Of a stretch of DNA of 64,000 bases, positions 23,537 to 50,241 are shown one piece after another. The stretch lies in NCBI GenBank assembly GCA_050258455.1, contig JBLMYT010000114.1, positions 55,995 to 119,994 on the forward strand, in the 5' to 3' direction. The stretch comes from Candidatus Omnitrophota bacterium. GTDB taxonomy: Bacteria > Acidobacteriota > Aminicenantia > UBA2199. The notes beneath the pieces were generated by a model. It worked only from the letters and a program-made list of their open reading frames with translations. It was not told the origin of the DNA and made no database searches. Both the position numbers and the translations under genes were made by a program. Position 1 is the stretch's first letter. Each line of letters begins with the position of its first letter.

Positions 23537-23945
23537 GATTTCATTTCTCCTTTTAATGAATGATTAAGATATGACGTTTTGATTGGTTATGAACCATATT
23601 ATAAACCATATATTATTGTATAAAAAAGATTGTATCGTGTCAATCTCTTTGTGTTTTTATAGTTGGTAATTCCCTGCGCATTGTGGGGGGGTTCCGATCA
23701 AAAGTTGGAGGGTATCGATCAAAAGAAACCGGAAAAAGATATCGAAATGACAGAATCCGACGAGTAATCAAAATCTGAAAAAGGGGCAGGGCATGAAGAT
23801 GCCCGACCCTGTCAGGGTTACATTTTCAATTTCAGTTGAATCCTCACGAATCAATGTTGCCATCGATTGGCAAAGTACAGCATCCGAACCATTTTTTCAA
23901 CTTTACTTTATTCATCAGGGAATAGTAAATAGAAATACCAGGAAA

Positions 23946-23974
23946 TTGAAAAAAGATCCAAAATATGGTATTAT
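23946..23974 (+). promoter_or_regulatory. Candidate sigma70-type promoter for the NRPS operon: TTGAAA-17 nt-TATTAT, with TG at the extended -10 position
   Basis: The -35 element is at 23946-23951, the TG is at 23966-23967 and the -10 element is at 23969-23974. This lies about 150 nt upstream of the NRPS-1 ATG in a 585-bp AT-rich divergent intergenic region. It is a pattern match only. Confidence 0.3.
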
Positions 23975-24121
23975 TTATTTTAAAAGTGGGGACTATTGGT
24001 TTCATTTGAGCTCTCCCAAAACAAAGACAAAATTTAAATTTATGATAGACGTATAGAAGCGTTGGCAGAAGCTGCCATCGTTCAAACAATCGATTATTCA
24101 GACAAGATAAGGAGTGATACC

Positions 24122-27100
24122 ATGTACAGGAGTGGTCTATCCGATTTCGATCGGTTATGGATTGCTGCAGGAAAAAAGGCCAAAGAAAAACAATATTGGA
24201 CCGAAAAATTATCCGGAAAATTGTCAACCAGTCGTTTTCCATATTCTCATTTTCATAAAGACGTAATTACCGAAAACTTATATAGCCATTCGGTTTACCT
24301 CGGTTTTGATGAGCATATATCTTCGCAATTGGTAAAATGGAGTGCGAATTCCGATATCCGCCTTCACATTATATTAAGCGCCGTACTGACACTTTTACTC
24401 TCAAAATATACGGGTAATGAGGATATCATTATGGGTACGCCGGTTTCTCACGGAGGACACGGAGAAACAAATGAAGATGCGGCTGTTATCAATACGGTCT
24501 TGGCATTACGTCATCAACTGAATGGTGAAATGCCGTTCAAGGAATTGCTGTTCCAGGTCAGACAAACCATCATTGAAGCGGATGAAAACCAGAATTATCC
24601 GTTTGAAGTATTGGTCAGGCAATTGGAAACGCCGTTTTCAGAGGAGGGGTGTCCCCTTTTCGATGTCGCGGTGGTATTGGAAAACATTCAGAATAAAGAG
24701 CATCTTTCAGCAATTAATCCAAAAGTCATCTTTTCGTTTTTACGGATTGAAAAACATATTGAAGGCAAAATAATATATAACACGCATTTTTATCATCGGC
24801 AGATGATTGAACGCATTGCCCTTCATTTTGGGCATATTGTGGAAATCATATTATCCGATCCCAATAGGAAGATATCGGAGATCGAGGTCATCACCGAAAA
24901 TGAAAAGAGACAATTATTAAATGATTTTAACAATACGGCGGCGGAATATCCGAAAGATAAAACCATTCATGAATTATTTGAAGATCAGGCAGAGAAAACG
25001 CCGGATCATATAGCAGTTATAGGTTCAATTTCTGTGCGGGCGCTTCGCCAATTATCCCTACAAATTTCCTATCGACAACTGAATGAACGATCCGAACAAT
25101 TGGCGAATAAATTAATCCAAGAAAACGTTCAACCCGATATTATTGTGGGTATAAAGATCGGGCGCTCGGTTGAGATGATTATCGGAATTTTGGGAATATT
25201 AAAAGCAGGTGGCGCATATTTACCCATTGATCCGGATTACCCGCAGGAACGGATTGATTATATGGTAAAGGATAGTGGTGCGGCATTGTTGGTTACCACC
25301 AACCATGAAGAAGGTGAGAAGTTAAGAAGTTGGGAAGTTAAGAAAGTGCTCTTTTTAGATCCTCTTAATCTCTCAGCTTCTCAACCTCTTAACTTCTCTT
25401 TAAATTCCGTAGGGGCAGATCCGTGTATCTGCCCGAGTACTTCTCTATTACCGGTAATCGGTAACCGGCCACTGGCCACTTCTCTCGCTTATGTTATTTA
25501 TACCTCCGGTTCAACCGGAAGTCCCAAAGGAGTAATGGTCGAGCATCGAAACGTTATTCGTTTAGTGAAAAATACGAATTTCATTGATTTTCAACCCGAA
25601 GATCGATTATTACAAACCGGGGCATTGGCGTTTGATGCCTCCACGTTTGAAATATGGGGCGCGTTGTTAAATGGTCTTAGCCTTCATCTGATGGATAAAG
25701 AAGACGTATTGAACCCGGATAAATTAAAGAAGCGCATGATTGAGCATCAAATCACCATCATGTGGATGACATCCCCGTTCTTTAATCAGATGGTGCAAAG
25801 TAATGAAGAAATCTTTGGACCTCTTCGTTATTTATTGGTTGGGGGCGATGTCTTATCCCCGTCGCATATCGATCGGGTACGAAAGCGGTTTCCCGGTTTG
25901 AGGGTTGTTAATGGTTATGGGCCGACCGAGAATACGACTTTTTCCACCACGTTTTTGATCGATAAGGATGATGAGGAAAAGATTCCCATCGGTAAACCCA
26001 TTGCCAATTCAACCGCTTATGTTGTGGATAGACATGGAGCTCTGCAACCGGTCGGAATTGCCGGAGAATTGTGGGTTGGAGGGGACGGTGTATCCCGCGG
26101 GTATTTAAACAACCCGGAATTGACGGCCCAGAAATTTTCCTCTGTGCCCTCCGTGACCTCTGTGGCTAAAAATTTATACAAAACCGGGGACCTGTGCCAG
26201 TGGATGGAGGACGGCAATATCGAATTCTTGGGTCGCATCGATCAGCAGGTAAAGATCAGAGGATTTCGCATTGAATTGGAAGAAATCGAGCATCGATTAT
26301 TGAAGCATCCGGCCATTCAAGACGCTGTCATTGTTGTGAAACACGATAAATATAAAAACAAGTATCTCTGCGCTTATATTGTTTCAAAAGATCCCTGTGA
26401 TCCCGCCCAATTAAGAGAATACCTAATAAAATATTTACCGGATTACATGATCCCGTCCCATTTCGGGCTCATAGAGAAAATACCGCTAACTCCGAATGGT
26501 AAAGTCGACCGGAAAGCATTACCCGAAATAAAGGTGAAAACAGGCCCGGATTATGTTGGGGCCGGGGATACGATCGAAGAAAAATTGTCAGCCATATGGT
26601 CCGATGTTCTGGAAATCGAAAAAAACGCCATTGGGATTCATGACAATTTTTTCAATCTGGGTGGACATTCCTTAAAGGCCGTTCGATTAATTTCTGAAAT
26701 TCATAACCAACTAAGTGTCAAATTATCCCTAACGGAAATATTCGCCTTTCCAACGGTAAAGGATTTGGCCGGGTATATAAGGGGCGCGCGCAGAAATGAA
26801 TATGCAATGATCGAGACGGTGGAAGAAAGAGAATACTATGACGTGGCCCAGGCCCAGGAACGGTTATGGATATTGGATCAGGTCCAAACGGAACTGACCG
26901 CTTACAATATTCCCGGTTATGTGGTATTCGAAAATTTGAATCGCAACGCTCTTCAACAGGCATTCGAATCGTTAATAAAACGCCATGAAATTTTGAGGAC
27001 CACGTTTATCACCGTAAATGGGGAACTCAAACAAAAAGTGCATGATTTTAAAAATCATGATATCCGGATAAATTATCTCGATTTGAGAAGAGAAGAAAAA

Positions 27101-28213
27101 AGAGGAGCCATCGTTGAAAGCTTAAAAGAAAAAGAAATGAGTACACCGTTTAACCTGGAAAAAGGTCCCTTATTAAGGAGCACATTGCTCCATGTCGAAG
27201 ATCATCGGTATATATTTTTATATACCCTGCATCATATTATTTCGGATGGATGGTCGATGGATATCCTACAAACGGAATTTATGACCCTTTATCAAGCGTA
27301 TTGCAGCGGTCAAGAGAACCCCTTGCCACCCCTTCGGATTCAATACAAAGATTACACCTACTGGCAGATGAAGCAATTGGCCGGCGAAAACTTAAAAAAC
27401 CACGAAGATTATTGGTTGAACCGGTTTAATGGCGACCTACCGGTTCTGGAACTGCCCCTCGATTACCCTCGCTCGGAACTACGGTCATTTGCGGGCGAAT
27501 TTATCCTATTTTCGTTAAGTAAGGAAATGACCGGACACTTAAAACGGATGTGCAATGAATTGGGCACCACTCTGTTTATCATCTTGCTGGCAATGGTAAA
27601 GGTTTTCTTGTATCGATATACAGGCCAAACGGACATTATTGTTGGAACTCCGGTTGCCGGTAGAGACCATAAAGACCTGGAAAATCAAATCGGTTTTTAT
27701 GTAAACATGTTGGCATTAAGAAATCAACTAACCAAAGGTCAGAGTTTCAGAGACGTTTTGGAAATGGTTAAACGCAGTACCCTGGAAGCCTTTGAACACC
27801 AGGTCTATCCCTTTGACCGTCTGGTTCATGAGTTAAAGGCCGTAAAGGATCTGAGTCGTCATCCCTTGTTTGATGTGGTGGTAATTTTAAGAAACCCCAT
27901 GAACGCGCCGGAACAAGTAAACCTGAGGACATTGCCGGAAGCAAATAGAGACGACGAATGGGTTGAAAACGGAGTAGAGGCCAGTAAGTTTGATTTAGGC
28001 TTAGGCTTCACCGACCAGGGCGATCAAATCATTGCCCATTTCAGATACAATGCGCAATTATTTAAAAGAGAACGAATCATGCTTATACGGGAACGGTTTA
28101 TCGGGTTGATGACAGATATTGTTTCCCATCTGGATAAAGAAATAGATGACCTCATGTTTACGTCTGAAGCAGAGAAAGGAAAACCGAAAAACAAATTTAA
28201 AGGAGGATTTTAA
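24122..28213 (+). CDS. NRPS 1 (one module): orphan C-domain C-lobe, then A, PCP and a complete C domain
   Basis: The ATG at 24122 follows AAGGAG at 24108-24113. The A-domain cores present are A1 ISYRQLNERSEQLA, A2 LKAGGAYLPIDPDYP, A3 LAYVIYTSGSTGSPKGV, A5 NGYGPTE, A6 GELWVGGDGVSRGYL, A7 YKTGD, A8 GRIDQQVKIRGFRIELEEIE and A10 NGKVDRKALPE. The PCP motif is LGGHSLKAV. The C domain carries HHIISDGWS. The stop is 3 nt before NRPS 2. Confidence 0.9.
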   Translation: MYRSGLSDFDRLWIAAGKKAKEKQYWTEKLSGKLSTSRFPYSHFHKDVITENLYSHSVYLGFDEHISSQLVKWSANSDIRLHIILSAVLTLLLSKYTGNEDIIMGTPVSHGGHGETNEDAAVINTVLALRHQLNGEMPFKELLFQVRQTIIEADENQNYPFEVLVRQLETPFSEEGCPLFDVAVVLENIQNKEHLSAINPKVIFSFLRIEKHIEGKIIYNTHFYHRQMIERIALHFGHIVEIILSDPNRKISEIEVITENEKRQLLNDFNNTAAEYPKDKTIHELFEDQAEKTPDHIAVIGSISVRALRQLSLQISYRQLNERSEQLANKLIQENVQPDIIVGIKIGRSVEMIIGILGILKAGGAYLPIDPDYPQERIDYMVKDSGAALLVTTNHEEGEKLRSWEVKKVLFLDPLNLSASQPLNFSLNSVGADPCICPSTSLLPVIGNRPLATSLAYVIYTSGSTGSPKGVMVEHRNVIRLVKNTNFIDFQPEDRLLQTGALAFDASTFEIWGALLNGLSLHLMDKEDVLNPDKLKKRMIEHQITIMWMTSPFFNQMVQSNEEIFGPLRYLLVGGDVLSPSHIDRVRKRFPGLRVVNGYGPTENTTFSTTFLIDKDDEEKIPIGKPIANSTAYVVDRHGALQPVGIAGELWVGGDGVSRGYLNNPELTAQKFSSVPSVTSVAKNLYKTGDLCQWMEDGNIEFLGRIDQQVKIRGFRIELEEIEHRLLKHPAIQDAVIVVKHDKYKNKYLCAYIVSKDPCDPAQLREYLIKYLPDYMIPSHFGLIEKIPLTPNGKVDRKALPEIKVKTGPDYVGAGDTIEEKLSAIWSDVLEIEKNAIGIHDNFFNLGGHSLKAVRLISEIHNQLSVKLSLTEIFAFPTVKDLAGYIRGARRNEYAMIETVEEREYYDVAQAQERLWILDQVQTELTAYNIPGYVVFENLNRNALQQAFESLIKRHEILRTTFITVNGELKQKVHDFKNHDIRINYLDLRREEKRGAIVESLKEKEMSTPFNLEKGPLLRSTLLHVEDHRYIFLYTLHHIISDGWSMDILQTEFMTLYQAYCSGQENPLPPLRIQYKDYTYWQMKQLAGENLKNHEDYWLNRFNGDLPVLELPLDYPRSELRSFAGEFILFSLSKEMTGHLKRMCNELGTTLFIILLAMVKVFLYRYTGQTDIIVGTPVAGRDHKDLENQIGFYVNMLALRNQLTKGQSFRDVLEMVKRSTLEAFEHQVYPFDRLVHELKAVKDLSRHPLFDVVVILRNPMNAPEQVNLRTLPEANRDDEWVENGVEASKFDLGLGFTDQGDQIIAHFRYNAQLFKRERIMLIRERFIGLMTDIVSHLDKEIDDLMFTSEAEKGKPKNKFKGGF
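25321..25440. repeat. MITE/REP-like element embedded in frame in the NRPS-1 A-domain A2-A3 loop. The left end GTTAAGAAGTTGGGAAGTTAAGAAAG is identical to 36739-36764, and the internal palindrome GTAGGGGCAGATCCGTGTATCTGCCC is at 25409-25434.
   Basis: The left terminus is an identical 26-mer shared with the second copy. Imperfect terminal inverted repeats are present (GAAGTTAAGAA ... TCTTAACTTC). The encoded peptide, LRSWEVKKVLFLDPLNLSASQPLNFSLNSVGADPCICPSTSLL, is low-complexity and unlike canonical A-domain sequence. Confidence 0.55.
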
Positions 28214-28216
28214 TCA

Positions 28217-31200
28217 ATGGCGGTCGACATCCACACCCTCGCTCTATACAACACATGTGAGGATTATTGGCTTAAAACACTGAATGGCGTAACGCTTACC
28301 CCTATTTTTGGGGATCAAAGTAATAACGGTATTAGCACCCGCGATTCATGGCGTGTGGCATTTCCTCCCGGCCTGTCAGATTCTATTCACTCCATGGTCC
28401 GGGGGGAAGATACCAATGCTTTTTTGATTTTTCTTACAGCGTTTAATATTTTAATATATAAATATACCCACGCGGATGATATATTAATCCATACCCCGGA
28501 TTTCCGGGATGAAGAATCTAAAAATTCCGAAGATGCAATGCTTTTCTTCCGTACCCATCCGGGTGAGGATCAAATCATTCGTGATTTATTAAACCAATTC
28601 CTTTCCGAATTAAACGGGGCCTATGAAAATCATCAATTCCTTTATGAATCATTGCTCAGACGTTTTAATGATAACCAAAATGGAGACGTTAACGCCTTAT
28701 CCGCTTTTGGTTTGCGGTATAACCGATTTAATCTGGAAAGCTTGCGGATGGAAGCAAGTCATTTGTTTTTTTCAATCGAGCAACGCGATCATGGCATCGA
28801 TCTTTTGATTCACTATCATACCTGTTCCTACACCTCGGATCAAATTGCTCAATTGGCACGGCATTATATCCATATCTTGGCCTCGATGGTGTCAAATTTG
28901 GACACCCCGCTTCATGCCATCGGTATATTTTCGCCGGAGGACAAACAAAAATTAATGGAGTTTATCGGAGAAGAAATCGAGGCCCCGGAGGAGGGGAAAA
29001 CATTTTTGGCCCGATTCGAACGCCAGGTTGAAGACTCGCCCCAATCTCCCGCCTTAGCCTGCGGGCCCGTGACATTGAGTTACCGGGCGTTAAATGAAAG
29101 GGCCAATCAACTGGCCCGACGATTACGTCACGAGGCTCCCCTCGCCAACGATGATTCCGTGGCCCTGGTGATGGACCGATCCCCAAAGATGGTGGAGAGC
29201 ATTCTGGCCGTATGGAAATGCGGGGCCGCTTATATCCCCATCGATCCGTCGTATCCCCAGGAGCGAATCGACACGATTATCAACGACTCCGGCGCCAAAT
29301 TGATGATTCGTGAAACGGGTAATATTTCATTTAAAGTGGAACAAACCCTGAAACCGGCAACCAGGGTCATTTACCTGGATCAAATCGAAAATGACCGCTT
29401 ACATGAGGATAAGACCAACCTTTGCGTTCCCCGACATCCCGGGGATCTGGCTTATATTATTTATACATCAGGCTCCACGGGTAAACCCAAAGGCGTCATG
29501 ATCGAACAGCGAGGCATGATGAATCATCTTCATGCCAAGATTTCGGAAATCCAAATCGATGCGACAAGCGTGATTGCTCAAAATGCCTCACACTGTTTCG
29601 ATATCTCCGTCTGGCAATTTTTCGCTGCCCTGTTGGTCGGCGGTAAAACAATTATTTATTCTGACCAGGCCGTGTTAAACCCCACGGCGTTTACCCGACA
29701 GTTGGCTGAGGATGGGGTTAATATATTGGAGGTCGTGCCATCCTATTTGTCAGTAATATTAGATCTAATCGAAGATCAGCAGACAGGCGATGCACTCGCC
29801 GGGTGTCGCTGCTTGTTGGTCACGGGCGAAAGCGTGAAGCCCGGCCTCGTGAACCGGTGGTTCAAAACATTTCCGGGTATACGAATGGTGAATGCTTATG
29901 GCCCCACCGAAGCATCCGACGACATCACCCATTTCGTGATGGACCGGTTCCCCGGGACCGGAAATATCCCAATCGGTAAAACGCTTCGTAACTTTCGTAT
30001 TTACATCGTAAATTCGCGTATGGAGCTATGTCCCGTCGGTGTGAAAGGTGAAATTCTCGTATCGGGACTCGGCGTCGGACGGGGGTATCTGAATGACATA
30101 AAAAAGACCACGGACGCCTTTATGGAAGATCCCTTTCGGCCGGAACGGGGTTTTCGGTTGTACAAAACCGGTGATATCGGACGCTATTTACCTGACGGCA
30201 ATATCGAATTTTTTGGCAGAAAAGATTACCAGGTGAAAGTCCGGGGTTATCGAATCGAGCTCGAAGAGATCGAGAATAAATTATCCCGCCTTGACGGAAT
30301 CCGGGATGCGGCAGTCGTTGAGAAAGACAGTAAAAATAAAGGCGACGGCATGTATTTGTGCGCTTATATCACGCTGCGCGATGGCGTCCGGACACGGACG
30401 GAAGAGATTAAAACCGAATTGGCCCGGACGCTTCCCCATTACATGATCCCGGCCTTTATTGTTGTGCTCGACGCCTTGCCATTGACCCCCAACGGCAAAT
30501 TGGACCGCAAGGCATTACCGGATCCGGATGAATCCGGAATCGGGGACGTCGCGTATGTGGCGCCCCGCAATGCCATTGAAATCAAGTTGGCGGAGATATG
30601 GCGACAGGTCATCGGAGTGGAGCAGATCGGCATTCACGATAACTTTTTTGCGTTGGGAGGAAATTCATTACTGGGAATTCGGATTGTGAACAAAATTCAG
30701 GAATGGTTGCACGAAACCGTTCATGTCACCATCCTCTTTTTGGCCCCGACGATTGAGCAGTTGGCGGTGAAACTGGAGAGTTACCGGCAGGAAAAAGAGA
30801 CCCGAATCAATGAGGCGGATATCGCGGAACTTCGGTCTCTCATGCCTCCCTTGCCCCCTCTGCCTTCCCATTTGGTTCGCCCGGGTAAAACCCCTCCGGT
30901 CCTGTTCATTTTGTGTCCGCCCCGGTCCGGTTCCACGTTGTTAAGGGTTATATTGGCCGGCCATCCCGGGTTATTTGCGCCACAGGAGTTGCAATTGCTG
31001 TCCTTCAATACGCTGACGGAGCGAAAAGCGGCCCTTTCCGGGACCTACAGCCTTTACCTGGAGGGAGTGATCCGGGCCATCATGGAGATGAAGGCGATTG
31101 GTGCGGACCAGGCCAAACAGATCATGGAAGCATTTGAAGCCCAGGGGATGACGGTGCAGGAGTTTTACGGCATCCTTCAGCATTGGCTGGGGGAAACGAT

Positions 31201-39709: not shown

Positions 39710-39744
39710 AGAAATGTGATATAAATAGTGAAGGAGTTTTTAAC

Positions 39745-41433: not shown

Positions 41434-41457
41434 ATATGTGGATACAGAGGAGAAGCA

Positions 41458-44400
41458 ATGAAGAATCAACGCCATCATGAGCTTGGAAATGTCGTGCTTG
41501 CAGCAAGACAATCGGAAAAAGAAAGAACGTACTGGAAAAATAAACTGGCGGGCGAATTACATCCCGGTCATTTTCCGTTTGATAAAAAACCAATGGGCCA
41601 TGTCCCCCGCCATCGGGATACCGTCCCATTTGAGATCGATGGGGACGTGTTCGCGAAACTCACCTGGATCATCAATGGGGCCGACACCTTACTCCATGTT
41701 ATTTTATGTTCGGTCGTGAAGGTATTACTTCATAAATATACAGGTAATACAGATATGATTATCGGTACACCGATTTATAAACAGGATATCGCAGGCGATT
41801 TTGTGAATACTATCTTGATTTTAAGAAATAAACTCGAAACGGCTATGAGTTTTAAGGACTTCTTGTTTCAGGTTAGAGACAGTCTTAATGAAGCCGTGGA
41901 GCATCAGAATTATCCGGTCGAAGGGATCTTCTATGACCTGGGGTTGCCCTACAACAGGGAGGACTGCCACTTGTTCGATACGGTGGTGATTCTGGAAAAT
42001 ATTCAAGCCTCCCACTATATCGACCACGTCAACCGGAATATTCTCTTCTCCTTTTTGCGGACCGATGGCGGGATGAACGGAACCATCGAATATAACACGA
42101 CCCTGTTTGAACGCCACACCATCGAGCGCATCCTGACCAGTCTCTTATTTATCATGCGCCAGGTCCTGTTTAATGTCACCATACCGTTGGATCAGGTGGA
42201 TGCCCTGACCGAAGACGAGAAGAAAACGCTATTAAGGGATTTCAATGGTCATGAAATCCAATATCCGAAGGAAAAAACGCTCCAGGATTTGTTTGAAGCG
42301 CAGGTCGAGACATCTCCGGACCGGGTCGCCGTGGTATACGACGGGCAAACATTAACGTACCGGGAATTGAACCGGAGGGCCAACCGTCTGGCCTGGTTAT
42401 TGAGGCATCAGCGGGTTGGCCCCAACGCTGTGGTCGGATTGATCAGCGAGCGGTCGTTAAATATGATTATCGGAATATGGGGGATTTTGAAATCCGGTGC
42501 TGCGTATTTACCCATTGACCCCTTATCGCCCACCAACCGCCTAATGGCCTTGGTACGGGACAGCGAGCCGTCTCATTTGGTTTTAACCGATAAGACGGTG
42601 GAACGACATTCGTACATGGCTTTCTTAAATCAGGATTTGGCCCATGTCAAGTTCATCAAAACGCCGCCCCGGCCGCCCATCGGCGAATTGGATATGCTGC
42701 CGTTCCCGGATCGTTCCCTGGTGGATTATGAGGTTTACAACCGGTATATTGGGCAGGCATTGGCCAAAAATAAAATGGTTCTTCAGGGATCCCGTGGGTG
42801 CCCGTTTAATTGTGCCTTTTGTCATAAGATATGGCCCAAAAAGCAAGTGAGCCGGTCCGCCGAAAATATCTTTGCGGAAATGCGCGTGTATTATGACATG
42901 GGGGTTCGCCGATTCGCTTTTGTGGATGACATATTTAATTTAAATATCGCTAATACATCGAGGCTATTCGACATGCTCATCGATCATCAGTTGAAGGTGG
43001 AATTATTCCTCGCGTTACGCGGGGATATCTTAACTCCCGAGTACATCGACCTCATGGTTCGAGCAGGGGCCGTGCGGATTACCATGTCACTGGAAACCGC
43101 CTCCGAACGCCTTCAAACCCTCATCGGCAAAAAGCTAAACCTTGACCGATTCCGGAAAAATATCGAGTACGTGTGTGAAAAGTACCCTCATGTTATCCTG
43201 GAGCTCAATACCCTGCATGGCATCCCGACCGAAACTCCCGAGGAAGCCCGCATGACCCTGGACTTTATTAAAGGGTTGAAGTGGCTCCATTTCCCCTATG
43301 TCCATGTCTTGAAAATTTATCAGAATACCGACATGGAAAAGATTGCCCTGCGAAGCGGTATTTCAAAAGAGGCCATTATCAGATCCGAAAATCTCGCCTA
43401 CCATGAGCTTCCGGAGACACTCCCGTTCGACAAAACGTTCTCGAAAAATTACCAGGCGGATTTTTTCAATAATTATTTCATGTCCAAAGAGCGTCTCCTC
43501 CGGGTGTTACCCTTCCAGATGAAGATTTTAACCGAAGACGAAATCGTACAGAAATACGACAGCTATGTGCCGGCGGATATTCATTCGCTTGACGATTTAT
43601 TGGCATATGCCGGCATTCGGAGAGACGAGTTGTCCATAACCCAATGTCGATCGGAAGAGCAAATCGCGATCCCGGATTTTAATCAAAAACTTCGGGCGGC
43701 TTTTCCTAAAACACCCCCCGCGGATTCGGCACAGGAATTGAAAATTTTACTCCTGGATTTATCCCAATTATTTACCGCCAATAAAAAGATGCTGTACGAT
43801 ATATTCGAGCCGCCGCTCGGGTTAATGAATTTATTGAGTTACGCGAGCCATCGATTGCCCGGTAAAATTAACGGGAAAATCGCAAAATCCCGGGTTGATT
43901 TTAATAATTACCGGGAGTTAAAAGCCCTTCTCGATGAATTTAAACCCGATGTTATCGGAGTTCGAACACTGAGTTTTTTCAAAGATTTTTTTCATCAAAC
44001 CATTGGGTTGATTCGTCAATGGGGAATTCAAACGCCAATTATTGCCGGAGGGCCTTACGTCACGAGTGATTATTTAACCATTCTGGCTGATCCGAATATC
44101 GATTTAATGGTCATTGGGGAGGGGGAGCTCACGTTCTGTGAGGTGATCGAGCGAATCATGGCCAATAACGGCCAGTTACCCGGACCTGAGGCGTTGCACC
44201 AAATCCCCGGGATCGTGTTTGCCACTCGGAGCGACAAAAACCAAACGGCCAGTCGCCCGCTTATTCAGATGGACGAAGTCATGAGATATACCCCGGATAT
44301 CCCGGATCATAATCCCCCGAGCATCAATCGGCCCGACGATCTATCCTATGTCATTTTTACTTCCGGCTCTACCGGTAAGCCCAAAGGCGTTAAGATCAGA

Positions 44401-47400
44401 CATCAAAGTGTTCACAACCTGGTCATTGGGTTAACCGAGCGCATTTACCACCGGTACTCACCCGGAGCTGCGGTCAGTTTGGTTGCCCCATACATCTTTG
44501 ATGCGTCGATAAAACAGATATTTGCCGCCCTGGTTTTGGGGCACACTCTCGATGTGGTCCCCGAAGATGCGCGGACCGACGGGGCTCGGTTGAGCGATTT
44601 CTTTAGACGACATCAGGTTGATATTATCGATGGAACCCCCACGCATCTTCGCTTGTTGCGGGAAATTCTGGGGAGCGGAAACCCGGGATTTTCCCCTCGG
44701 CATTTTGTGATTGGAGGAGAGGCCTTCCCCCGCGGACTGGCCCGAGAAATAGGAGAGATATTCAATATCAACGGGCACGCGTGCACCATTACCAATGTAT
44801 ACGGCCCGACCGAATGTTGCGATGTCTCGACCACGTATGAAATGACCCTTGAGGATCCCCACCCGGGGGATATTCTACCTATCGGTAAGCCCATGCCCAA
44901 TGTCCGTGTTTATATTCTGGATCCGGATCTTCGATTGGTGCCGATCGGAATGATGGGCGAATTGTGTATCGGAGGCGATGGGGTTGCGGCCGGTTATTTA
45001 AACAGCGATGTGCTCACATCGCAAAAGTTTATTGAGAATCCCTTTGAAAAAGGGACATCGTTGTATCGAAGCGGTGACCTGGTTCGATGGTTGGCGAATG
45101 GGCATATCGAATTCGTGGGGAGAAAGGACCATCAAATTAAAATCCGGGGATTCCGGATCGAACCCGGAGAAATTGAGAAACAACTCCTGCATATTGAGCA
45201 TATCAAGGAATGCATGGTCGTGGCGAAAAAAGACGCCAGGGGCGATAACTTTTTATGTGCGTATATTGTTCCCCGGCACGGCGAAATCGCGTTGAAGCAG
45301 ATGACCACCGTGAACCCTCCCTTTCATTTTGAAAAAATGATCAAAAAACATTCCGAGTTTCGCCTAAACGATATGGCACTCAGTGGGGATATGTTTATCT
45401 CGGAGGCGTTGACAAACCCTGGCGATTCCCAACCCCGCACCCGCTCTTTTGCTCAGCATTTTCAAACGTTGGTAATGGAAAAAAGCGATGAAATCGCGGT
45501 GAAATCAGGTACCCAATCTTTGTCGTTTCATTTGCTGGATGCTCAATCCAACCGGTTGGCAAGACGAATTATCGAATCGTACGATGACCGGTTCCAATTA
45601 TCCGGAGAAGAACATAACCGGTACCAACGTCAAATCCTCCTGGACCGCTGGGGAGTGGAATGTCAGGAAAAGCTTAAAAGTACAACGGTATTTGTTGCCG
45701 GGGCCGGCGGCATTGGGTCTCAGATCATCCAGCAACTGGCGCTGCTGGGATTCGGCACCTTGATCATCTGCGATGACGATACAGTGGAATTGTCGAATTT
45801 AAACCGTCAGAGTATGCATGATCTGTCGCGAATGGGTATGAATAAGGCCTTGTCAGCCCAAATGACCGTCCAGCGAATAAACCCTCACGTTACCGTGAGG
45901 GTGCGACAGGAGCGAATCAAATGGGAGAATATTGATGATTTGGTCGAAGATTCCCAAATCATTTTCGATTGCGTGGATGACCTTGAAACCAAATTCATCC
46001 TATCCGAGGCCGCAGTAGCTCGGCAAATTCCCCACATCCTTTCCGGGATGATCGAGGTCAATTCATTTGCTGCTATTTTGCATGCCCCCCGTACCGCTTG
46101 CTTCCATTGCATTTATGACCGGAGCAAAGTCGATGAAATTAACGAAATGAGGAAAACCGTTACCAATTACCGGAAGAAACCTTTCCCCGTTGCTGCCCCG
46201 GCTCTTTTTGTGACGACCGGTTTTGTATGCAACGAAGCGCTCAAAATCGTGTTGGGGTTTGAAAACCCGGCGTATGATAAATTTTTTGTATTCAACCAGA
46301 TGGGAACGCCTCGAATTGTCGAAACGGAAGGGTACAAACAAATGACGTTTGCATTTAACGATCATTTAAAGCAGACCTCCAAAGCCCAGGGATTTGATTG
46401 GGATATATGTTGGAGTGGAAAGTTTGTCGAAGAATTGACGATCGGCCCGGATCCCCATTGCCCCCTTTGTTCCCAAAAGCGGCGGCAACAAGCGGGTACT
46501 CGGTCCGAAGGAACCGGAATCGGGCATACGGGTTCGCCGGCGGTAAATAACGAAACAAAGGGGCACCAATCCGTGGCCTCGATCTTGAATAATGACGTGG
46601 GGTCGATTTTGTCGCTTCTCGGCACCTTTAAATCGGGAAAAACCTACGTTCCGCTCAATCCCACGTCCCCCGATAAAAAATTGGCTTACCTGGTTGAGGC
46701 GATCGGTTCCCGGTTAATACTGACCGATAGTGAAAATCTCGATCACGCATTAAAAATCAGGGATCGGGTGAATAAGCGAATCCCTGTAATTAATATCGAT
46801 GAGGTCGGTGATGAAGACGATGGCTTAACCGAAATCCCGGATATCGATATCTCTCCCGATTCCGAAGCTTATCTTTTCCCTCAATTTAATACCCGGAGTC
46901 AGGATGTTCCGTTAACGCCCTCCGGGTTGCGGGAGTTTTTGTTAAAGGAATTACCGGACTATATGATTCCCAATTATTTTATGGAAATTGAAACGTTTCC
47001 TTTGACCGCCAATGGAAAATTGGATATCGATGCCTTGCCGGAACCCAGGATCGGCCAGCCGGATGAAAATCATGAAGTTCCCCGAAATCCGGTTGAAAAA
47101 AAATTAGCCGAAATCTGGTCGGATGTTCTTTCGGTCAATGGGGATTTGATTGGAATCAACTCTCATTTTTTCGATTTGGGGGGGCATTCCTTGCGAGCGA
47201 CATCGCTGATCGCCAAAATCAACAAAGAATTTAATGTTAAAGTGCCCCTGGTGGAAGTTTTTCGCACGCCGACCATCAAAGGCCTGGCGCAATTTATCTC
47301 CAATTCCCAAAGAGAGAACGCGAGCGTTAGTGATGATGCTCACCTGGTGAGGCTCAACGTGCGACCCGGAGAATCCGGGAACTTGTTCTTTATCCATGAA

Positions 47401-48195
47401 ATTAGTGGAGGCGTGGATGGCTATATGGAATTTGTTCTCCACCTGGATGTGAATCTGAATTGTTGGGGGATTCGGGCCGCATGGGATGATTACCCGGCGC
47501 CCAAAAATCAAACCATTGAAGAGATGGCAACTCGCTACATCGAAACAATGAAGATGGTTCAGCCCCGCGGGCCTTATTTTCTGGTCGGGTGGTCGCTGGG
47601 CGGATCCATTGCCTTTGAAATGGTTCGGCAATTGGAACAATCGAATGAACCTATAGGGTTTGTGTCTTTGATTGATTCGGTGGGGCCCCGTGGCGCTTTC
47701 CAAAAAGATGCCCTCCCTTTTACGTCCGAATCTGAGAAGGCGTTTGTCCGTCGTGCCATATCGGATCCCGAGCTCCATGAAAAACTTGAAAGCGCTTCAG
47801 GGTTGGATCAAATTTGGTCTGTAATTGGGGAATATCTGGAGAAGACCCCCGCCGGTATGGATATCCTGAAAGAGGAAATCCGGAAAAATACCAATCCCGG
47901 AATGGGGATAGACGGGCAGATAAAGCCGATGGATATGATTAAACGATTCAATATGGCACGCACGCTGGCGAATGCATGGTCGCTGTATAATCCGGCCGAA
48001 AAAATCAAAACACCGATCCATTACGTTGCGGCGGTCAGGTCGAAAGAGACTATTAAAGATAAATGGGAGGATTATTCCGAACAACCGATTTTACATTATG
48101 AAATTGACGGGGACCATTTCTCCATATTTCGAAAGCCGGATGTCCTCGCTTTTGCAGAAAAATTTTGTAATATGGTGCGTACTGTTATATCATGA
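41458..48195 (+). CDS. Terminal NRPS 3: orphan C-lobe, then one A domain split by two insertions, then PCP and thioesterase. The first insertion is a radical SAM plus B12-binding unit between A2 and A3. The second is a ThiF/MoeB E1-like domain between A8 and A9/A10.
   Basis: The A cores in order are A1 LTYRELNRRANRLA and A2 LKSGAAYLPIDP, then an insertion of about 590 aa. The insertion carries the radical SAM motif GSRGCPFNCAFCH and later a B12-binding Rossmann segment ILLLDL..PPLGLMNLLSYA..KPDVIGVRTLSF..IIAGGPY..MVIGEGE. The A cores resume with A3 LSYVIFTSGSTGKPKGV, A4 FDAS, A5 NVYGPTE, A6 GELCIGGDGVAAGYL, A7 YRSGDL and A8 GRKDHQIKIRGFRIEPGEIE. A second insertion of about 450 aa carries the E1 Rossmann segment YQRQILLDRWGVECQEKLKSTTVFVAGAGGIGSQIIQQLALLGFGTLIICDDDTVELSNLNRQ and two CxxC pairs (CFHC, CPLC). 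The A domain ends with A9/A10 LPDYMIPNYF..TANGKLDIDALPEP. The PCP motif is LGGHSLRAT and the TE motif is GWSLGGSIA. The protein is 2245 aa and has no internal stop codons. Confidence 0.85.
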   Translation: MKNQRHHELGNVVLAARQSEKERTYWKNKLAGELHPGHFPFDKKPMGHVPRHRDTVPFEIDGDVFAKLTWIINGADTLLHVILCSVVKVLLHKYTGNTDMIIGTPIYKQDIAGDFVNTILILRNKLETAMSFKDFLFQVRDSLNEAVEHQNYPVEGIFYDLGLPYNREDCHLFDTVVILENIQASHYIDHVNRNILFSFLRTDGGMNGTIEYNTTLFERHTIERILTSLLFIMRQVLFNVTIPLDQVDALTEDEKKTLLRDFNGHEIQYPKEKTLQDLFEAQVETSPDRVAVVYDGQTLTYRELNRRANRLAWLLRHQRVGPNAVVGLISERSLNMIIGIWGILKSGAAYLPIDPLSPTNRLMALVRDSEPSHLVLTDKTVERHSYMAFLNQDLAHVKFIKTPPRPPIGELDMLPFPDRSLVDYEVYNRYIGQALAKNKMVLQGSRGCPFNCAFCHKIWPKKQVSRSAENIFAEMRVYYDMGVRRFAFVDDIFNLNIANTSRLFDMLIDHQLKVELFLALRGDILTPEYIDLMVRAGAVRITMSLETASERLQTLIGKKLNLDRFRKNIEYVCEKYPHVILELNTLHGIPTETPEEARMTLDFIKGLKWLHFPYVHVLKIYQNTDMEKIALRSGISKEAIIRSENLAYHELPETLPFDKTFSKNYQADFFNNYFMSKERLLRVLPFQMKILTEDEIVQKYDSYVPADIHSLDDLLAYAGIRRDELSITQCRSEEQIAIPDFNQKLRAAFPKTPPADSAQELKILLLDLSQLFTANKKMLYDIFEPPLGLMNLLSYASHRLPGKINGKIAKSRVDFNNYRELKALLDEFKPDVIGVRTLSFFKDFFHQTIGLIRQWGIQTPIIAGGPYVTSDYLTILADPNIDLMVIGEGELTFCEVIERIMANNGQLPGPEALHQIPGIVFATRSDKNQTASRPLIQMDEVMRYTPDIPDHNPPSINRPDDLSYVIFTSGSTGKPKGVKIRHQSVHNLVIGLTERIYHRYSPGAAVSLVAPYIFDASIKQIFAALVLGHTLDVVPEDARTDGARLSDFFRRHQVDIIDGTPTHLRLLREILGSGNPGFSPRHFVIGGEAFPRGLAREIGEIFNINGHACTITNVYGPTECCDVSTTYEMTLEDPHPGDILPIGKPMPNVRVYILDPDLRLVPIGMMGELCIGGDGVAAGYLNSDVLTSQKFIENPFEKGTSLYRSGDLVRWLANGHIEFVGRKDHQIKIRGFRIEPGEIEKQLLHIEHIKECMVVAKKDARGDNFLCAYIVPRHGEIALKQMTTVNPPFHFEKMIKKHSEFRLNDMALSGDMFISEALTNPGDSQPRTRSFAQHFQTLVMEKSDEIAVKSGTQSLSFHLLDAQSNRLARRIIESYDDRFQLSGEEHNRYQRQILLDRWGVECQEKLKSTTVFVAGAGGIGSQIIQQLALLGFGTLIICDDDTVELSNLNRQSMHDLSRMGMNKALSAQMTVQRINPHVTVRVRQERIKWENIDDLVEDSQIIFDCVDDLETKFILSEAAVARQIPHILSGMIEVNSFAAILHAPRTACFHCIYDRSKVDEINEMRKTVTNYRKKPFPVAAPALFVTTGFVCNEALKIVLGFENPAYDKFFVFNQMGTPRIVETEGYKQMTFAFNDHLKQTSKAQGFDWDICWSGKFVEELTIGPDPHCPLCSQKRRQQAGTRSEGTGIGHTGSPAVNNETKGHQSVASILNNDVGSILSLLGTFKSGKTYVPLNPTSPDKKLAYLVEAIGSRLILTDSENLDHALKIRDRVNKRIPVINIDEVGDEDDGLTEIPDIDISPDSEAYLFPQFNTRSQDVPLTPSGLREFLLKELPDYMIPNYFMEIETFPLTANGKLDIDALPEPRIGQPDENHEVPRNPVEKKLAEIWSDVLSVNGDLIGINSHFFDLGGHSLRATSLIAKINKEFNVKVPLVEVFRTPTIKGLAQFISNSQRENASVSDDAHLVRLNVRPGESGNLFFIHEISGGVDGYMEFVLHLDVNLNCWGIRAAWDDYPAPKNQTIEEMATRYIETMKMVQPRGPYFLVGWSLGGSIAFEMVRQLEQSNEPIGFVSLIDSVGPRGAFQKDALPFTSESEKAFVRRAISDPELHEKLESASGLDQIWSVIGEYLEKTPAGMDILKEEIRKNTNPGMGIDGQIKPMDMIKRFNMARTLANAWSLYNPAEKIKTPIHYVAAVRSKETIKDKWEDYSEQPILHYEIDGDHFSIFRKPDVLAFAEKFCNMVRTVIS

Positions 48196-48244
48196 GTAGC
48201 GGCAATAAAAATCAATTTTTAAATCAATTTTTAAAGGTGAATAA

Positions 48245-49279
48245 ATGAAAGAAAAAAAATGTTCGTTTCAACTGTTTTTAAGTATATGGATTGTCATTTT
48301 CATGTTTGGAGCATCCGTCGTAGGGGCCGTTGAGAACCCCTTGAGTCTCTCAACGGTTCAAGAGGGGGTCTATCGGATCGTGGGTTTGAATCTTGAGGTT
48401 AATGTGACCTGTCTGGTCACCGGGGAAGGGGTATTGGTCATCGATTCAGGTACGAATCCTGTGGAAGGGCGATGGATTGTCGAGCGAATCAAAGAAAAAA
48501 CAGATAAACCGATTAAATATGTCGTGCTAACCCATTACCATTTTGATCATTCGGCGGGGTTAATGGGATTTCCCAAAGATGTAACGGTTTTGGCGCACGC
48601 CAATTGTTATCAAAATATTTCCAAATACAATGAAGCCCGGCGGGTCTCGCTGGTAGAGAAGGTTTTACCGGGGCAGATCCAGGGGATTCGTCAGGAGCTT
48701 GAAACGTTAAAAAAACAAAATAGCCCTGATATTAAAGAAAATGAAACGAAATTGGAAAACCTGACGCGGCAGTTGGAGGCATTCCAAAAAGCGAATGTGG
48801 TGTTGCCTTCCGTCACGTTTGAACAACAGTTGGTGCTCCGGTTGGGAGGAGAAAAAATCGAATGTATTTATCCGGGGCCGACGCATACCAATGGTAGTAT
48901 TTGCGTTTATGTACCGGACAAAAAATTATTAGTCACCGGGGATATGGTGTTCAATGGTTTTATTCCGTATATCGATTGGAAAGCGGGTTCCAATACCCGG
49001 AACTGGATCGATCAATTGGGGAAATTATCCCAATGGAATATTGAAACGGTGATCCCGGGTCATGGCGAACCGGTTGGCAAAGCGGTCCTGGATGAGCAGA
49101 AACGTTTTCTCTCGGATTTGAGGGCCAGTGTAACCGAGGCCATCGGTAAAGGATTGACGTTGGACCAAATGAAGACATCGATTAAATTGGCCAATTACAG
49201 TCATTTAAAATTTCCGAATTTCCTTGGTAGTGATATCGAATCGGTTTATGTCGAATTGACAAATAGCAAAAAGGAATAG
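48245..49279 (+). CDS. Secreted metallo-beta-lactamase-fold hydrolase
   Basis: There is a signal peptide. The MBL motif is THYHFDHSAG (HxHxDH), with further downstream His and Asp ligands. Confidence 0.8.
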   Translation: MKEKKCSFQLFLSIWIVIFMFGASVVGAVENPLSLSTVQEGVYRIVGLNLEVNVTCLVTGEGVLVIDSGTNPVEGRWIVERIKEKTDKPIKYVVLTHYHFDHSAGLMGFPKDVTVLAHANCYQNISKYNEARRVSLVEKVLPGQIQGIRQELETLKKQNSPDIKENETKLENLTRQLEAFQKANVVLPSVTFEQQLVLRLGGEKIECIYPGPTHTNGSICVYVPDKKLLVTGDMVFNGFIPYIDWKAGSNTRNWIDQLGKLSQWNIETVIPGHGEPVGKAVLDEQKRFLSDLRASVTEAIGKGLTLDQMKTSIKLANYSHLKFPNFLGSDIESVYVELTNSKKE

Positions 49280-49299
49280 GTTTGAAGAGGAGAAGCGGC

Positions 49300-50241
49300 A
49301 TGACGTTTGAAGAAACAATCGCATCGTCGAGAGTCGTATTAACGGAGGGGGGAATGGTTGAGCGAATTCGGCGGGATCCGGAAGTGCAATTGGATCCGTT
49401 TATTGCCCATTCGGGGTTGGTATATGAGGAAACCGGGCGTCGTGTTCTCGGCCGTATTTACAGGGAATACATCGACGTTGCCCACAGGTATCAGCTTCCC
49501 ATGATGAGTTATGCGCCCACCTGGAGGGCGAATCCGGAGAATCTCAAGAAATCGTTTTTTTGTAACTGTAAAGATATAACCATGGACTGTGTCGATTTCT
49601 TAAAGGAAATTCGGGCATGTTACGGCGAGTATTCTCCGTCGATTTTTATTGGGGGGTTAATGGCATGTAAGGGGAATGCGTATTGTCCGGAAGAAGCTCT
49701 GTCGAAAGAGGAAGCGGTAGTGTTTCACCGGGAGCAAGCGGAGGCGTTGGCGCGAAGCAAGGTGGATTTTATCAAAGCCGCTACTTTACCGGCAGTTTCC
49801 GAAGCCTATGGAATTGCGAAAGCCATTGCCTCCCAGGGAATTCCGTATATTTTAAGTTTTGTGGTCCGGCCCGATGGGTGCGTACTGGATGGAACCCCAA
49901 TTTATAGCGCAATTGAATGGATTGATTCGGAAATCCATCCCAAACCGATTTTTTATATGTTGAATTGTGTGCATCCGAAGATATTTGATCAAGCCGTCAG
50001 CCAGGAATCCAATATGTCCAAACAGGTAACCCGGCGGATTTTGGGGTTTCAAGCCAACACGTCTTCAAAGAGTCCAAAGGAGTTAGATAATTTATCCTAT
50101 TTGGATACATTGCCCCCAGAGGAGTTTGGCGGGATGATGATTGCGTTACACCGAAAATTTGCGATTAAAGTTTTAGGCGGGTGTTGTGGAACCGATGCCA
50201 GACATATTATCGAGATAGCCAAAAAATTAAAAAATTCCTGA
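49300..50241 (+). CDS. Homocysteine S-methyltransferase-family protein (PF02574-like; the same fold as the MetH homocysteine-binding domain)
   Basis: The C-terminal zinc-ligand motif is GGCCGTDARHI, with upstream Cys at CVHP. The ATG at 49300 follows GAGGAG. The ORF track starts at TTG 49282. Confidence 0.7.
   Translation: MTFEETIASSRVVLTEGGMVERIRRDPEVQLDPFIAHSGLVYEETGRRVLGRIYREYIDVAHRYQLPMMSYAPTWRANPENLKKSFFCNCKDITMDCVDFLKEIRACYGEYSPSIFIGGLMACKGNAYCPEEALSKEEAVVFHREQAEALARSKVDFIKAATLPAVSEAYGIAKAIASQGIPYILSFVVRPDGCVLDGTPIYSAIEWIDSEIHPKPIFYMLNCVHPKIFDQAVSQESNMSKQVTRRILGFQANTSSKSPKELDNLSYLDTLPPEEFGGMMIALHRKFAIKVLGGCCGTDARHIIEIAKKLKNS

Follow-up and report, generated by a model that had tools for sequence, protein, structure and literature searches.

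The 64,000-nucleotide (nt) stretch analyzed here, referred to as the window, comes from a metagenome-assembled genome (MAG) of a Candidatus Omnitrophota bacterium (contig JBLMYT010000114.1). At positions 24122-50241 of its plus strand, it carries an intact six-gene operon for a five-module nonribosomal peptide synthetase (NRPS). There is hardly any room for doubt about this anatomy, and a chance origin is excluded because of 26 kb of intact reading frames and E-values down to 0. The last adenylation (A) domain of the assembly line, A5, is interrupted twice, by a radical S-adenosylmethionine (SAM) unit with a B12-binding-like domain and by an E1-like ThiF unit. We propose that these inserts modify the residue held by the last module, and we give the proposed explanation as a whole a probability of about 0.55.

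A5 is encoded by the fourth gene, NRPS4 (41458-48195, plus strand; 2245 amino acids (aa); MGE5343419.1), which specifies, according to open reading frame (ORF) and Pfam analysis, a half condensation (C) domain, A5, a peptidyl carrier protein (PCP) domain and a thioesterase (TE). BLAST comparison with the four uninterrupted A-PCP units of the cluster splits A5 into NRPS4 residues 259-380, 946-1273, and 1815-1880, and the joins are seamless, reference position 491 being resumed at 493. The first part (42235-42597) bears motifs a1 (LTYRELN) and a2 (LKSGAAYLPID), the second (44293-45276) bears motifs a3 to a8 and the specificity code DAKDVGVDVK, which we take to be Glu-like, and the third (46900-47097) bears a9 (LPDYMIP) and a10 (NGKLD). 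Within NRPS4, a2 lies at residue 344, a3 at 968, a8 at 1221, a9 at 1832, and a10 at 1852. Insert 1, of about 565 aa (42598-44292), is placed between a2 and a3 and consists, by Pfam, BLAST and a structural model, of a radical SAM core, a helical region and a B12-binding-like Rossmann domain. Insert 2, of about 541 aa (45277-46899), is placed between a8 and a9 and consists of an a1-like motif (a1', LSFHLLD), a ThiF core and an a2-like motif (a2', FKSGKTYVPLN). The earlier note, made from the letters alone, had described both units as spliced into a single A domain, which these comparisons bear out. PCP5 (GGHSL, 47101-47298) and the TE (GWSLG, 47383-48159) complete the module.

Interrupted A domains are a main NRPS route to diversified building blocks, and they are also targets of engineering. 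Both inserts of A5 occupy known permissive sites, a2-a3 and a8-a9, which are the same two sites used by interrupted A domains with M domains (at a2-a3 in TioN, at a8-a9 in KtzH, and back-to-back in ColG and DidJ). As in these proteins, no core motif of the host is lost, and its a10 lysine persists on the far side of the insert. In contrast to them, the inserts are radical SAM/B12 and E1-like ThiF units rather than SAM-dependent M, KR or Ox domains, and the second insert bears remnants of another A domain. The A-domain inserts seen so far are cofactor-simple methyl-, keto- or oxido-reductase domains, and those of A5 fall outside the catalogued types M, KR, Ox and MOx. A 2020 census of bacterial interrupted A domains makes no mention of radical SAM, B12 or ThiF (PMC8341866). 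In 2020, A domains with natural interruptions at both a2-a3 and a8-a9 were said not to occur in Nature. Besides the window, such a double interruption is present in six database relatives (P0002, P0003, P0005, P0027, P0033, and P0106), of which P0002, P0003 and P0005 are from independent assemblies of other phyla and show the same doubly interrupted architecture at 55-69% identity.

The ThiF core of insert 2 (NRPS4 residues 1381-1625, 45598-46332) is a ThiF/MoeB-type, E1-like adenylyltransferase core that Pfam recognizes as ThiF with an E-value of 2e-56 (191 bits, cutoff 28). In NCBIfam it comes nearest to ThiF, MoeB, UbaA and MoeZ, under the equivalog cutoff in each case (156 bits against 275 for ThiF and 151 against 266 for MoeB). 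By its sequence it is a member of the ThiF/MoeB superfamily and not an orthologue. In an alignment of 13 copies (nine embedded and four stand-alone, 45-69% identity), RYxRQ, GxGG, D168/D170, SNLNRQ, K192, and D233/D236 (numbering of alignment A1) are invariant, as is a four-Cys Zn site made of two CxxC pairs (C277, C280, C397, and C400), the second of which lies just downstream of the core. Cys184 of ThiF has no counterpart in insert 2. The modeled fold matches 1JW9 (MoeB) and 1ZUD (ThiF) with target-normalized template modeling (TM) scores of 0.89-0.91, and MccB and PaaA are also among the top matches. Vestiges of another A domain border the core: the stretch ahead of it (45277-45597) has the a1-like LSFHLLD...NRLA, and the stretch behind it (46333-46899) has the a2-like FKSGKTYVPLN together with about 90 residues that score as AMP-binding positions 46-136 in Pfam.

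What defines E1-like (ThiF-like) enzymes is that they nucleotidylate a carboxyl group (PMC12596934). A 2025 review of them lists one validated example outside peptides that are made by ribosomes and modified post-translationally (RiPPs), in an oxazolone pathway, and none in an NRPS (PMC12596934). The RiPP enzymes MccB, PaaA and GrcB have the same fold and the same ATP/Mg residues as insert 2. In contrast to RiPP ThiF-like enzymes, insert 2 has no RiPP recognition element or peptide-clamp domain, is embedded in an NRPS module and is flanked by A remnants, and its presumed substrate is bound to a carrier protein and not a ribosomal peptide. PaaA reportedly acts on Glu side chains, which parallels the Glu-like code of the A domain that hosts insert 2.

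The ThiF insert is rare: an exhaustive profile search of 1.84 billion representative proteins returned about 60 multidomain proteins that bear the unit, followed at lower ranks by stand-alone ThiFs of about 300 aa and then by ordinary NRPSs that match the a2-like flank only. When 185,579 species genomes were scanned, the 80 best loci included the full unit in five MAGs, from Aminicenantes, Acidobacteriota, Lutisporaceae, Spirochaetota and Bacillota. ThiF units in relatives were detected by phmmer and are of two classes. In class I, to which the window belongs, ThiF and the A remnants lie within Asub of a complete A domain. In class II, the A domain is complete except that ThiF separates a1 from a2, and this class includes ThiF-A-PCP tridomain proteins. 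Because class II relatives hold ThiF between a1 and a2, the architecture of the window may have been derived by fusion and deletion of a ThiF-interrupted A domain into Asub of a neighboring A domain. Asp-type (DL[TS]K..H..) or Glu-type (DAKD....) codes are found in 20 of the 25 class I hosts, compared with 42 of 639 background A domains from the same data set. The tridomain proteins have the Glu-type codes DAKDIGIVD and DAKDIGVIY.

In insert 1, Pfam places Radical_SAM at NRPS4 residues 445-604, with the CxxxCxxC motif at residue 448, and B12-binding at 822-896. The [4Fe-4S] and SAM motif in a partial TIM barrel, typical of class B radical SAM methylases, is present, and the canonical order of B12-binding before radical SAM domain is reversed, whereas the stand-alone radical SAM enzyme encoded by the preceding gene has it. 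BLAST reflects the permutation, as residues 262-429 of the stand-alone enzyme align to 440-608 of NRPS4 and residues 99-236 to 787-919. The N-terminal B12 region of the KedN5 NCBIfam model likewise aligns to the end of insert 1. AlphaFold2, given 16 inserts, predicts a single compact body (pLDDT 83.5, pTM 0.85), the C-terminal α/β domain of which resembles the B12 domains of MetH, corrinoid proteins and mutases. A precedent for a C-terminal B12 domain is Mmp10, a methylase acting on an sp3 carbon of a peptide (PMC8828468), and it shares the order of radical SAM and then B12 domain with insert 1. Whereas CysS (cystobactamid) and DscE (discodermin) serve NRPSs in trans, insert 1 is fused in cis inside an A domain. 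As recently as 2025, an NRPS with a stand-alone radical SAM C-methyltransferase was called 'an unusual enzyme combination'.

This type of insert is present in 107 of the 120 closest database relatives of NRPS4 and is common in NRPSs of uncultured anaerobes. Its carriers include Aminicenantes, Acidobacteria, Bacteroidales and the cultured Abyssisolibacter fermentans. The codes of the host A domains are varied and mostly canonical, about 20 being Thr-like, about 25 Pro-like and about 15 Ile-like, in addition to Asp-, Leu-, Glu- and Gln-like ones. Because of this diversity, we infer that the insert is probably a portable tailoring cassette that is substrate-independent, as M domains are. A search of the open-access literature, including NRPS work on Aminicenantes or Omnitrophota, gave no description of an embedded radical SAM/B12 unit, and no characterized pathway was found there with radical SAM and ThiF units embedded in an A domain. 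The 'unprecedented composition' that had been claimed for the cluster holds with respect to characterized pathways. It does not hold overall, given that the cluster type recurs in MAGs, that most relatives carry the radical SAM/B12 insert, and that an in-line sulfotransferase has a precedent in the oci cluster (PMC2533009). The term should be read as uncharacterized but recurrent in uncultured anaerobes. What is new is the two types of A-domain interruption, the double interruption found in nature and the peptide setting of a CurM-type sulfotransferase, whereas the NRPS cluster as a kind is known.

We propose the following pathway, the chemistry of which we would put at roughly even odds on the strength of these sequence relationships. 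Insert 1 would play the role of an M domain and is likely to C-methylate an unactivated carbon of the PCP5-bound residue, as an in-cis counterpart of CysS and DscE. The ThiF unit would use ATP to adenylate the side-chain carboxylate of the Asp/Glu-type residue loaded by its host. The side chain is the suggested target because it is the only free carboxylate on an aminoacyl- or peptidyl-S-PCP and because the host codes are of the Asp/Glu type. Attack of a nitrogen or sulfur nucleophile on the acyl-adenylate would then yield a lactam or isopeptide, an amide, or a thioacid, as the assembly-line equivalent of MccB, PaaA and GrcB chemistry. The stand-alone B12-radical SAM enzyme may modify that residue or intermediate a second time by radical chemistry. 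Upstream, a CurM-type sulfotransferase would sulfonate the PCP2-bound residue, with the sulfate either staying or leaving, and the TE would release a heavily modified pentapeptide. The metallo-β-lactamase (MBL)-fold hydrolase, if exported, could act outside the cytoplasm in processing or self-protection, and the homocysteine methyltransferase (Hcy-MT)-family enzyme could S-methylate a thiol or thioacid, or recycle homocysteine from the SAM-consuming steps.

In its general form, the proposal is that ThiF-interrupted A domains carry out a new on-line NRPS reaction, in which carrier-bound Asp/Glu, once adenylated with ATP at its side-chain carboxylate, would be captured by an N or S nucleophile of the same molecule and become a lactam, imide, isopeptide or thioacid. 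Together with the embedded B12 radical SAM unit, RiPP-type tailoring would have been rebuilt in NRPS modules of uncultured anaerobes. We advance this generalization tentatively, as somewhat less than an even bet. A more daring version is that carboxylate adenylation followed by amine attack might give a strained lactam, with the exported MBL hydrolase serving as self-protection of the producer. If the proposal is true, the radical SAM/B12 insert would put methylation of unactivated carbons on the assembly line, and C-methylation of the polytheonamide or bottromycin type and E1 chemistry of the MccB/PaaA/GrcB type, known from RiPPs, would now also operate inside NRPS modules. The link of ThiF to Asp/Glu-type codes provides a concrete and testable hypothesis for activation chemistry based on carrier proteins.

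Several points weigh against this proposal. Every reaction in the pathway is read from sequence comparison and models. Positions 5, 8, and 9 of the A5 code are not those of canonical Glu, shared ancestry is ignored in the Fisher test for the association of ThiF with acidic codes (p 4e-18), and the class II codes (DAMHVGGVT and SAMHDGGVI) lack a clear acidic character. The cluster encodes no nucleophile donor (rhodanese, desulfurase or amidotransferase). For insert 1, the best sequence and structure match is AprD4, and the Pfam B12-binding scores are at threshold (32.1-34.3 bits against a cutoff of 32.1). No stand-alone radical SAM gene lies within 10 kb in the related loci L012-L015, and the best NCBIfam equivalog of the Hcy-MT-family protein (among MmuM, BHMT and the MetH Hcy domain) reaches 63 bits against a cutoff of 215.

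The sulfotransferase (ST) is the starting point of the alternative that survives best. It is an in-line, CurM/OLS-type enzyme dependent on 3'-phosphoadenosine-5'-phosphosulfate (PAPS), encoded at 30896-31540 (Sulfotransfer_3 E 4e-28), with the RSGST form of the 5'-phosphosulfate-binding (5'-PSB) motif. PCP2 ends 43 residues 5' of it. Among solved structures, it matches 4GBM (E 3.9e-61) and 4GOX (E 1.1e-57), while the next solved ST gives an E-value of about 1e-3. Its residues 29-293 align to 29-288 of 4GBM, which is near full length. The nearest database relatives are didomain proteins of an acyl carrier protein (ACP) and an ST, about 430-450 aa long, and the NRPS-embedded form was seen only in P0171 (partial, C and ST, 71% identity) and P0078. 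In P0078, an Aminicenantes NRPS, a CurM-type ST follows an A domain whose code, DFWNIGMVH, is the canonical one for Thr (residues 1165-1868), and the same protein has a radical SAM/B12 insert. This arrangement supports sulfonation of the beta-hydroxyl of a carrier-bound amino acid.

The window ST shares with CurM/OLS close similarity, the PAPS motifs and the position directly after a carrier. CurM/OLS enzymes sulfonate a beta-hydroxyacyl thioester on its carrier, the sulfate serving as leaving group, and a terminal TE then performs decarboxylative elimination of sulfate and CO2. By contrast, the window substrate is presumed to be an aminoacyl- or peptidyl-S-PCP, the ST is followed by a C domain, and the only TE lies three modules downstream. 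Because a beta-hydroxy-aminoacyl-S-PCP is chemically analogous to the beta-hydroxyacyl-S-ACP of CurM, the sulfate may by analogy be a leaving group, in a dehydration or substitution, rather than a feature of the product. Retention of the sulfate in the product is also possible, and the oci cyanopeptolin is said to keep its sulfate. The cyanopeptolin synthetase of Planktothrix (oci) is an NRPS with an in-line ST domain, although its ST, unlike that of the window, sits in a loading region with a glyceric-acid-loading domain (PMC2533009). According to this alternative, the cluster makes a sulfated pentapeptide with a stable sulfate ester, the radical SAM units do no more than C-methylate, and ThiF, MBL and Hcy-MT have peripheral roles. 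The oci product and the intact PAPS-binding motifs speak for it. We nevertheless hold it to be unlikely, because the ST is far closer to the sulfate-eliminating CurM/OLS enzymes than to other solved STs, and because no role is left for a strictly conserved and catalytically intact ThiF. The prediction of a sulfated product in the earlier note is accordingly left uncertain.

A second alternative concerns insert 1, which might catalyze dehydration or dehydroxylation, epimerization or cross-linking instead of methylation, with a Rossmann domain that may not bind cobalamin. AprD4 is a diol dehydratase that is not known to use cobalamin. Methylation is not the sole option for insert 1 because this enzyme is the best structural match. 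The borderline B12-binding score and the lack of epimerization (E) domains in the cluster, as judged by Pfam, point in the same direction. On the other side, the other close structural matches are the B12-dependent methylases TsrM, MgmA, CysS, TokK and Mmp10, and the C-terminal domain of the insert resembles cobalamin-binding domains. Furthermore, the host codes include those for Pro, Ile, Thr, Asp and Gln, residue kinds that class B methylases C-methylate in bottromycin and polytheonamide. A non-methylating insert 1 thus seems improbable.

For the ThiF unit, a canonical sulfur-transfer role can be considered. It would adenylate the C-terminal Gly-Gly of a ThiS/MoaD-like carrier encoded elsewhere, the thiocarboxylate of which would give sulfur to an NRPS intermediate, possibly together with the radical SAM enzymes, and the Hcy-MT-family protein would S-methylate the thiol. 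The family matches (ThiF, MoeB, UbaA and MoeZ), a Zn site as in ThiF/MoeB, and a Zn-thiolate methyltransferase two genes downstream that is kept in locus L002 are consistent with this role. The window and 13 related loci have no small sense-strand ORF ending in GG, the cluster encodes no rhodanese or desulfurase domain, and the counterpart of ThiF Cys184 is missing. The tie of the insert to Asp/Glu-type A domains would also be unexplained, and the methyltransferase is found in only two clusters. The sulfur-carrier role is therefore quite improbable. A related candidate, a desulfurase beside the stand-alone ThiF of locus L007, was rejected, as the pyridoxal phosphate (PLP) enzyme there is a GntC/VioD-type cyclodehydratase.

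The last alternative of substance involves the gene upstream of NRPS4. It encodes a stand-alone, class-B-type radical SAM enzyme of 562 aa (39745-41433, plus strand; MGE5343418.1), with Pfam B12-binding at residues 140-217, a radical SAM core at 269-425 and CxxxCxxC at 270. All its NCBIfam scores are far under the cutoffs; like CysS and DscE it is a free enzyme beside an NRPS, but of a distinct family. Full-length orthologues (phmmer E 1e-175 or better) adjoin the ThiF-bearing gene in L001, L002, L003, L006, and L011. In L090 a 558-aa B12-radical SAM gene is found directly upstream of that gene, and in L005 a different radical SAM gene has this place. The absence of the enzyme from L012-L015 rules out that it is obligatory for ThiF, and from its distribution it appears to be a frequent but non-obligatory partner of the ThiF-bearing gene.

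The ThiF unit could be a non-catalytic scaffold that binds or positions something, for example by docking the stand-alone enzyme or dimerizing the terminal module, with chemistry purely of the radical SAM kind. Most close relatives have the radical SAM gene immediately upstream of the one with ThiF, and E1-like enzymes are dimers. Moreover, binding-only ThiF-like proteins are documented in RiPP pathways as partners of azoline cyclodehydratases (PMC12596934). The invariance of the nucleotide/Mg residues and of the four-Cys Zn site at 45-69% identity is unexpected for a decayed scaffold, the ThiF fold is complete (TM 0.89-0.91), and the radical SAM partner is absent from several loci. We rate a scaffold role about as low as the sulfur-carrier role, if anything a shade lower, and retain side-chain adenylation as the preferred function of insert 2. 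Finally, an artefact of mis-assembly, chimerism or a decaying pseudogene, as might be suspected for a MAG in which each protein is a singleton at 90% identity, is next to impossible in view of the uninterrupted 2245-aa frame with every motif intact, the same double interruption in the independent assemblies P0002, P0003 and P0005, and about 60 representative proteins with the ThiF unit.

Some relatives provide further context for the ThiF unit. In the cultured Clostridiaceae bacterium M8S5 (CP118523.1), locus L009 (10001-13103) encodes a ThiF-A-PCP protein of 909 aa with the code DAKDIGVIY, outside any large NRPS cluster, and an unannotated 129-aa ORF follows the gene. This protein is a tractable model for ThiF/A/PCP chemistry, and it represents a cultured entry point, as does the radical SAM-interrupted NRPS of Abyssisolibacter fermentans. 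Locus L007 (7708-13250), on a metagenome scaffold that carries P0134 (assigned by NCBI to a Halanaerobiales MAG), has within an NRPS cluster a stand-alone ThiF with 57% identity to the insert. Genes upstream of this ThiF encode a RaSEA-like radical SAM protein, which exceeds the NCBIfam cutoff, and the GntC/VioD-type PLP cyclodehydratase, and those downstream encode a 3HCDH-type dehydrogenase and an FkbH-like protein, so that a different tailoring set surrounds the same ThiF. Locus L006 (1-25262) has two consecutive ThiF-bearing NRPS genes, with the stand-alone radical SAM gene upstream of the first, and its cluster starts with an asparagine-synthetase-like gene (GATase and Asn_synthase). In L010, a class I glutamine amidotransferase adjoins a ThiF-A-PCP gene. 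It is possible that the asparagine-synthetase-like gene and the amidotransferase gene encode N donors for the activated carboxylate.

The remainder of the assembly line is that of a type I modular NRPS, with A core motifs, a phosphopantetheinyl Ser in the PCPs, HHxxxDG in the C domains and GxSxG in the TE. Pfam analysis of whole proteins and of ten sub-segments gave five A domains, four full C domains, five PCPs and one TE, the same count that the earlier note had reached, and a scan of each protein confirmed its A, C, PCP, TE, ST, radical SAM and ThiF assignments. The AMP-binding E-values of the five A domains range from 1e-89 to 8e-225. The motifs are intact: HHxxxDG is found four times, GG[HN]S[LI] five times and GWSLG once, and a3 (TSGSTGxPK) and a10 (PLxxxGK) are present in all five A domains. 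Codes were extracted from A1 to A5 by reading them against a GrsA sequence, and the control returned DAWTIAAICK. Along the line, the codes read as Val-like, X, X, X and Glu-like. The codes of A2, A3, A4 and A5 found no match in a full-text search of the open-access literature.

NRPS1 (24122-28213, plus strand; 1363 aa; MGE5343416.1) comprises, by ORF and Pfam analysis, a half-C domain, A1, PCP1 and a C domain. The vestigial C-terminal lobe of a C domain at 24176-24919 covers only Pfam profile positions 191-456 and has no HHxxxDG. It is followed by A1 (24977-26503; code DAFWLGGTFK, presumably Val-like), PCP1 (26579-26779, GGHSL), and a full C domain at the C-terminus (26831-28177, HHIISDG). NRPS2 (28217-39709, plus strand; 3830 aa; MGE5343417.1), analyzed in the same way, begins with another such lobe (28247-28954, Pfam), which is followed by A2 (29015-30499; code DIWELTADDK, with acidic pocket residues) and PCP2 (30584-30766, GGNSL). 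After the ST come a full C domain (31787-33133, HHIISDG), A3 (33194-34663; DLKNIGTDIK), PCP3 (34748-34933, GGHSI), a further full C domain (34988-36310, HHIISDG), A4 (36371-37984; DWWHCGMIMK), PCP4 (38063-38260, GGHSL), and the C-terminal full C domain (38309-39661, HHIVTDG). The lobe of NRPS4 (41500-42234, Pfam) is 38% identical to that of NRPS1.

The half-C lobes of NRPS1, NRPS2 and NRPS4 all span profile positions of about 190-456 without HHxxxDG, and the preceding protein ends in a full C domain. Their identity to full C domains is 20-29%. Among the relatives, 85 of 118 start with a half-C lobe and 60 of 120 end with a full C domain. This unusual junction between subunits, with C on one side and half-C-A on the other, is a trait of the whole clade, and the lobe may be a platform or docking element for the A domain. 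The earlier note had not recorded these lobes, the A remnants around ThiF or the permuted order of the embedded radical SAM/B12 unit, and it had suggested no function for ThiF.

Two further genes complete the operon. The first (48245-49279, plus strand; MGE5343420.1) encodes a 344-aa MBL-fold metallo-hydrolase (Lactamase_B E 7e-28) with an N-terminal, signal-like hydrophobic segment and the motif HYHFDH. It is present only in the closest clusters (the window, L001 and L002), and the signal-like N-terminus is found in all three. Assignment to the subclass B1 beta-lactamases was rejected, as the score is 93 bits against an NCBIfam cutoff of 200, with HxHxDH and, by eye, an Asp at the position of Cys221. 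The protein is best described, from its sequence, as a generic di-zinc MBL hydrolase. The second gene (49300-50241, plus strand; MGE5343421.1) encodes the 313-aa protein of the homocysteine S-methyltransferase family (S-methyl_trans E 5e-29), with the Zn-thiolate cysteines LNC and GGCCG. The ATG at 49300 is a likelier start than the mechanical TTG at 49282, because GAGGAG lies 8 nt upstream of it and because the start of the orthologue and the NCBI gene call agree with it. PF02574 scores 102.6 bits against a gathering cutoff of 22, and both motifs are kept in the L002 orthologue at 75% identity. A resemblance to the Hcy domain of MetH, which had been suggested, holds at the level of the family, while orthology to an equivalog does not.

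A mechanical ORF listing of the window confirmed six tightly spaced, co-directional genes at 24122-50241, set between a divergent gene that ends at 23536 and a convergent one that ends at 50281. The gaps between successive genes are 3, 35, 24, 49, and 20 nt, the first of them between NRPS1 and NRPS2, and a Shine-Dalgarno-like sequence precedes each start codon, for example AAGGAG 7 nt 5' of the ATG at 24122. All of this agrees with the layout that the earlier note had given, as do its four kinds of tailoring domain (in-line ST, stand-alone B12-binding radical SAM enzyme, double insert, and the MBL-fold and MetH-Hcy-domain-like proteins) and the AT-rich divergent intergenic region upstream (23537-24121). 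The guanine plus cytosine (GC) content of this region is 35.2% over 585 bp, compared with 45.5% in the cluster, and a sigma70-like TTGAAA-17-TATTAT site lies at 23946-23974 (plus strand). Scans inside the operon for terminators and promoters found nothing above shuffle expectation, and in the 39.6-50.4 kb section the terminator-like sites were within that expectation in number, with none inside an intergenic gap. The order of radical SAM, NRPS(ThiF)-TE and MBL genes is kept in L001 and L002, in L002 together with the Hcy-MT gene. Because the gaps hold no terminator-like site and the gene order is kept, these sequence data are consistent with a single transcript. In NCBI the six proteins bear generic names under successive accessions (MGE5343416.1-MGE5343421.1), and at 90% identity none of them clusters with any other protein. 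NRPS4 is 100% identical to a protein that a Candidatus Omnitrophota MAG encodes on a 121-kb contig, and clusters of this type recur in other MAGs at 55-69% identity.

The housekeeping setting that had been described is correct for the nuo genes, as three convergent Proton_antipo_M genes (nuoN/M/L-like) start 39 nt 3' of the operon. The pil genes (PilB/T/C-like and PilS/PilR-like) are real, but at 9897-17008 they lie about 7 kb upstream and do not adjoin the operon. The nearest upstream neighbors encode a C69 peptidase and a GAF histidine kinase. The C69-family peptidase (21872-23536, minus strand), which has a lipoprotein-like signal, MKRILLMVTMGIALSVLAFNISIHAC, is divergent from the NRPS operon and shares the 585-bp region with it; it might conceivably serve the cluster in processing or immunity, and the related loci give no upstream context for its comparison. 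Elsewhere in the window, ORFs at 5267-7429 (plus strand, 720 aa) and 17056-18276 (minus strand, 406 aa) have no Pfam match at E-values up to 1e-4. Within the cluster, GC skew is locally raised at 34001-36000 (+0.24) and 48001-50000 (+0.20), while it is about 0 to 0.1 in the rest.

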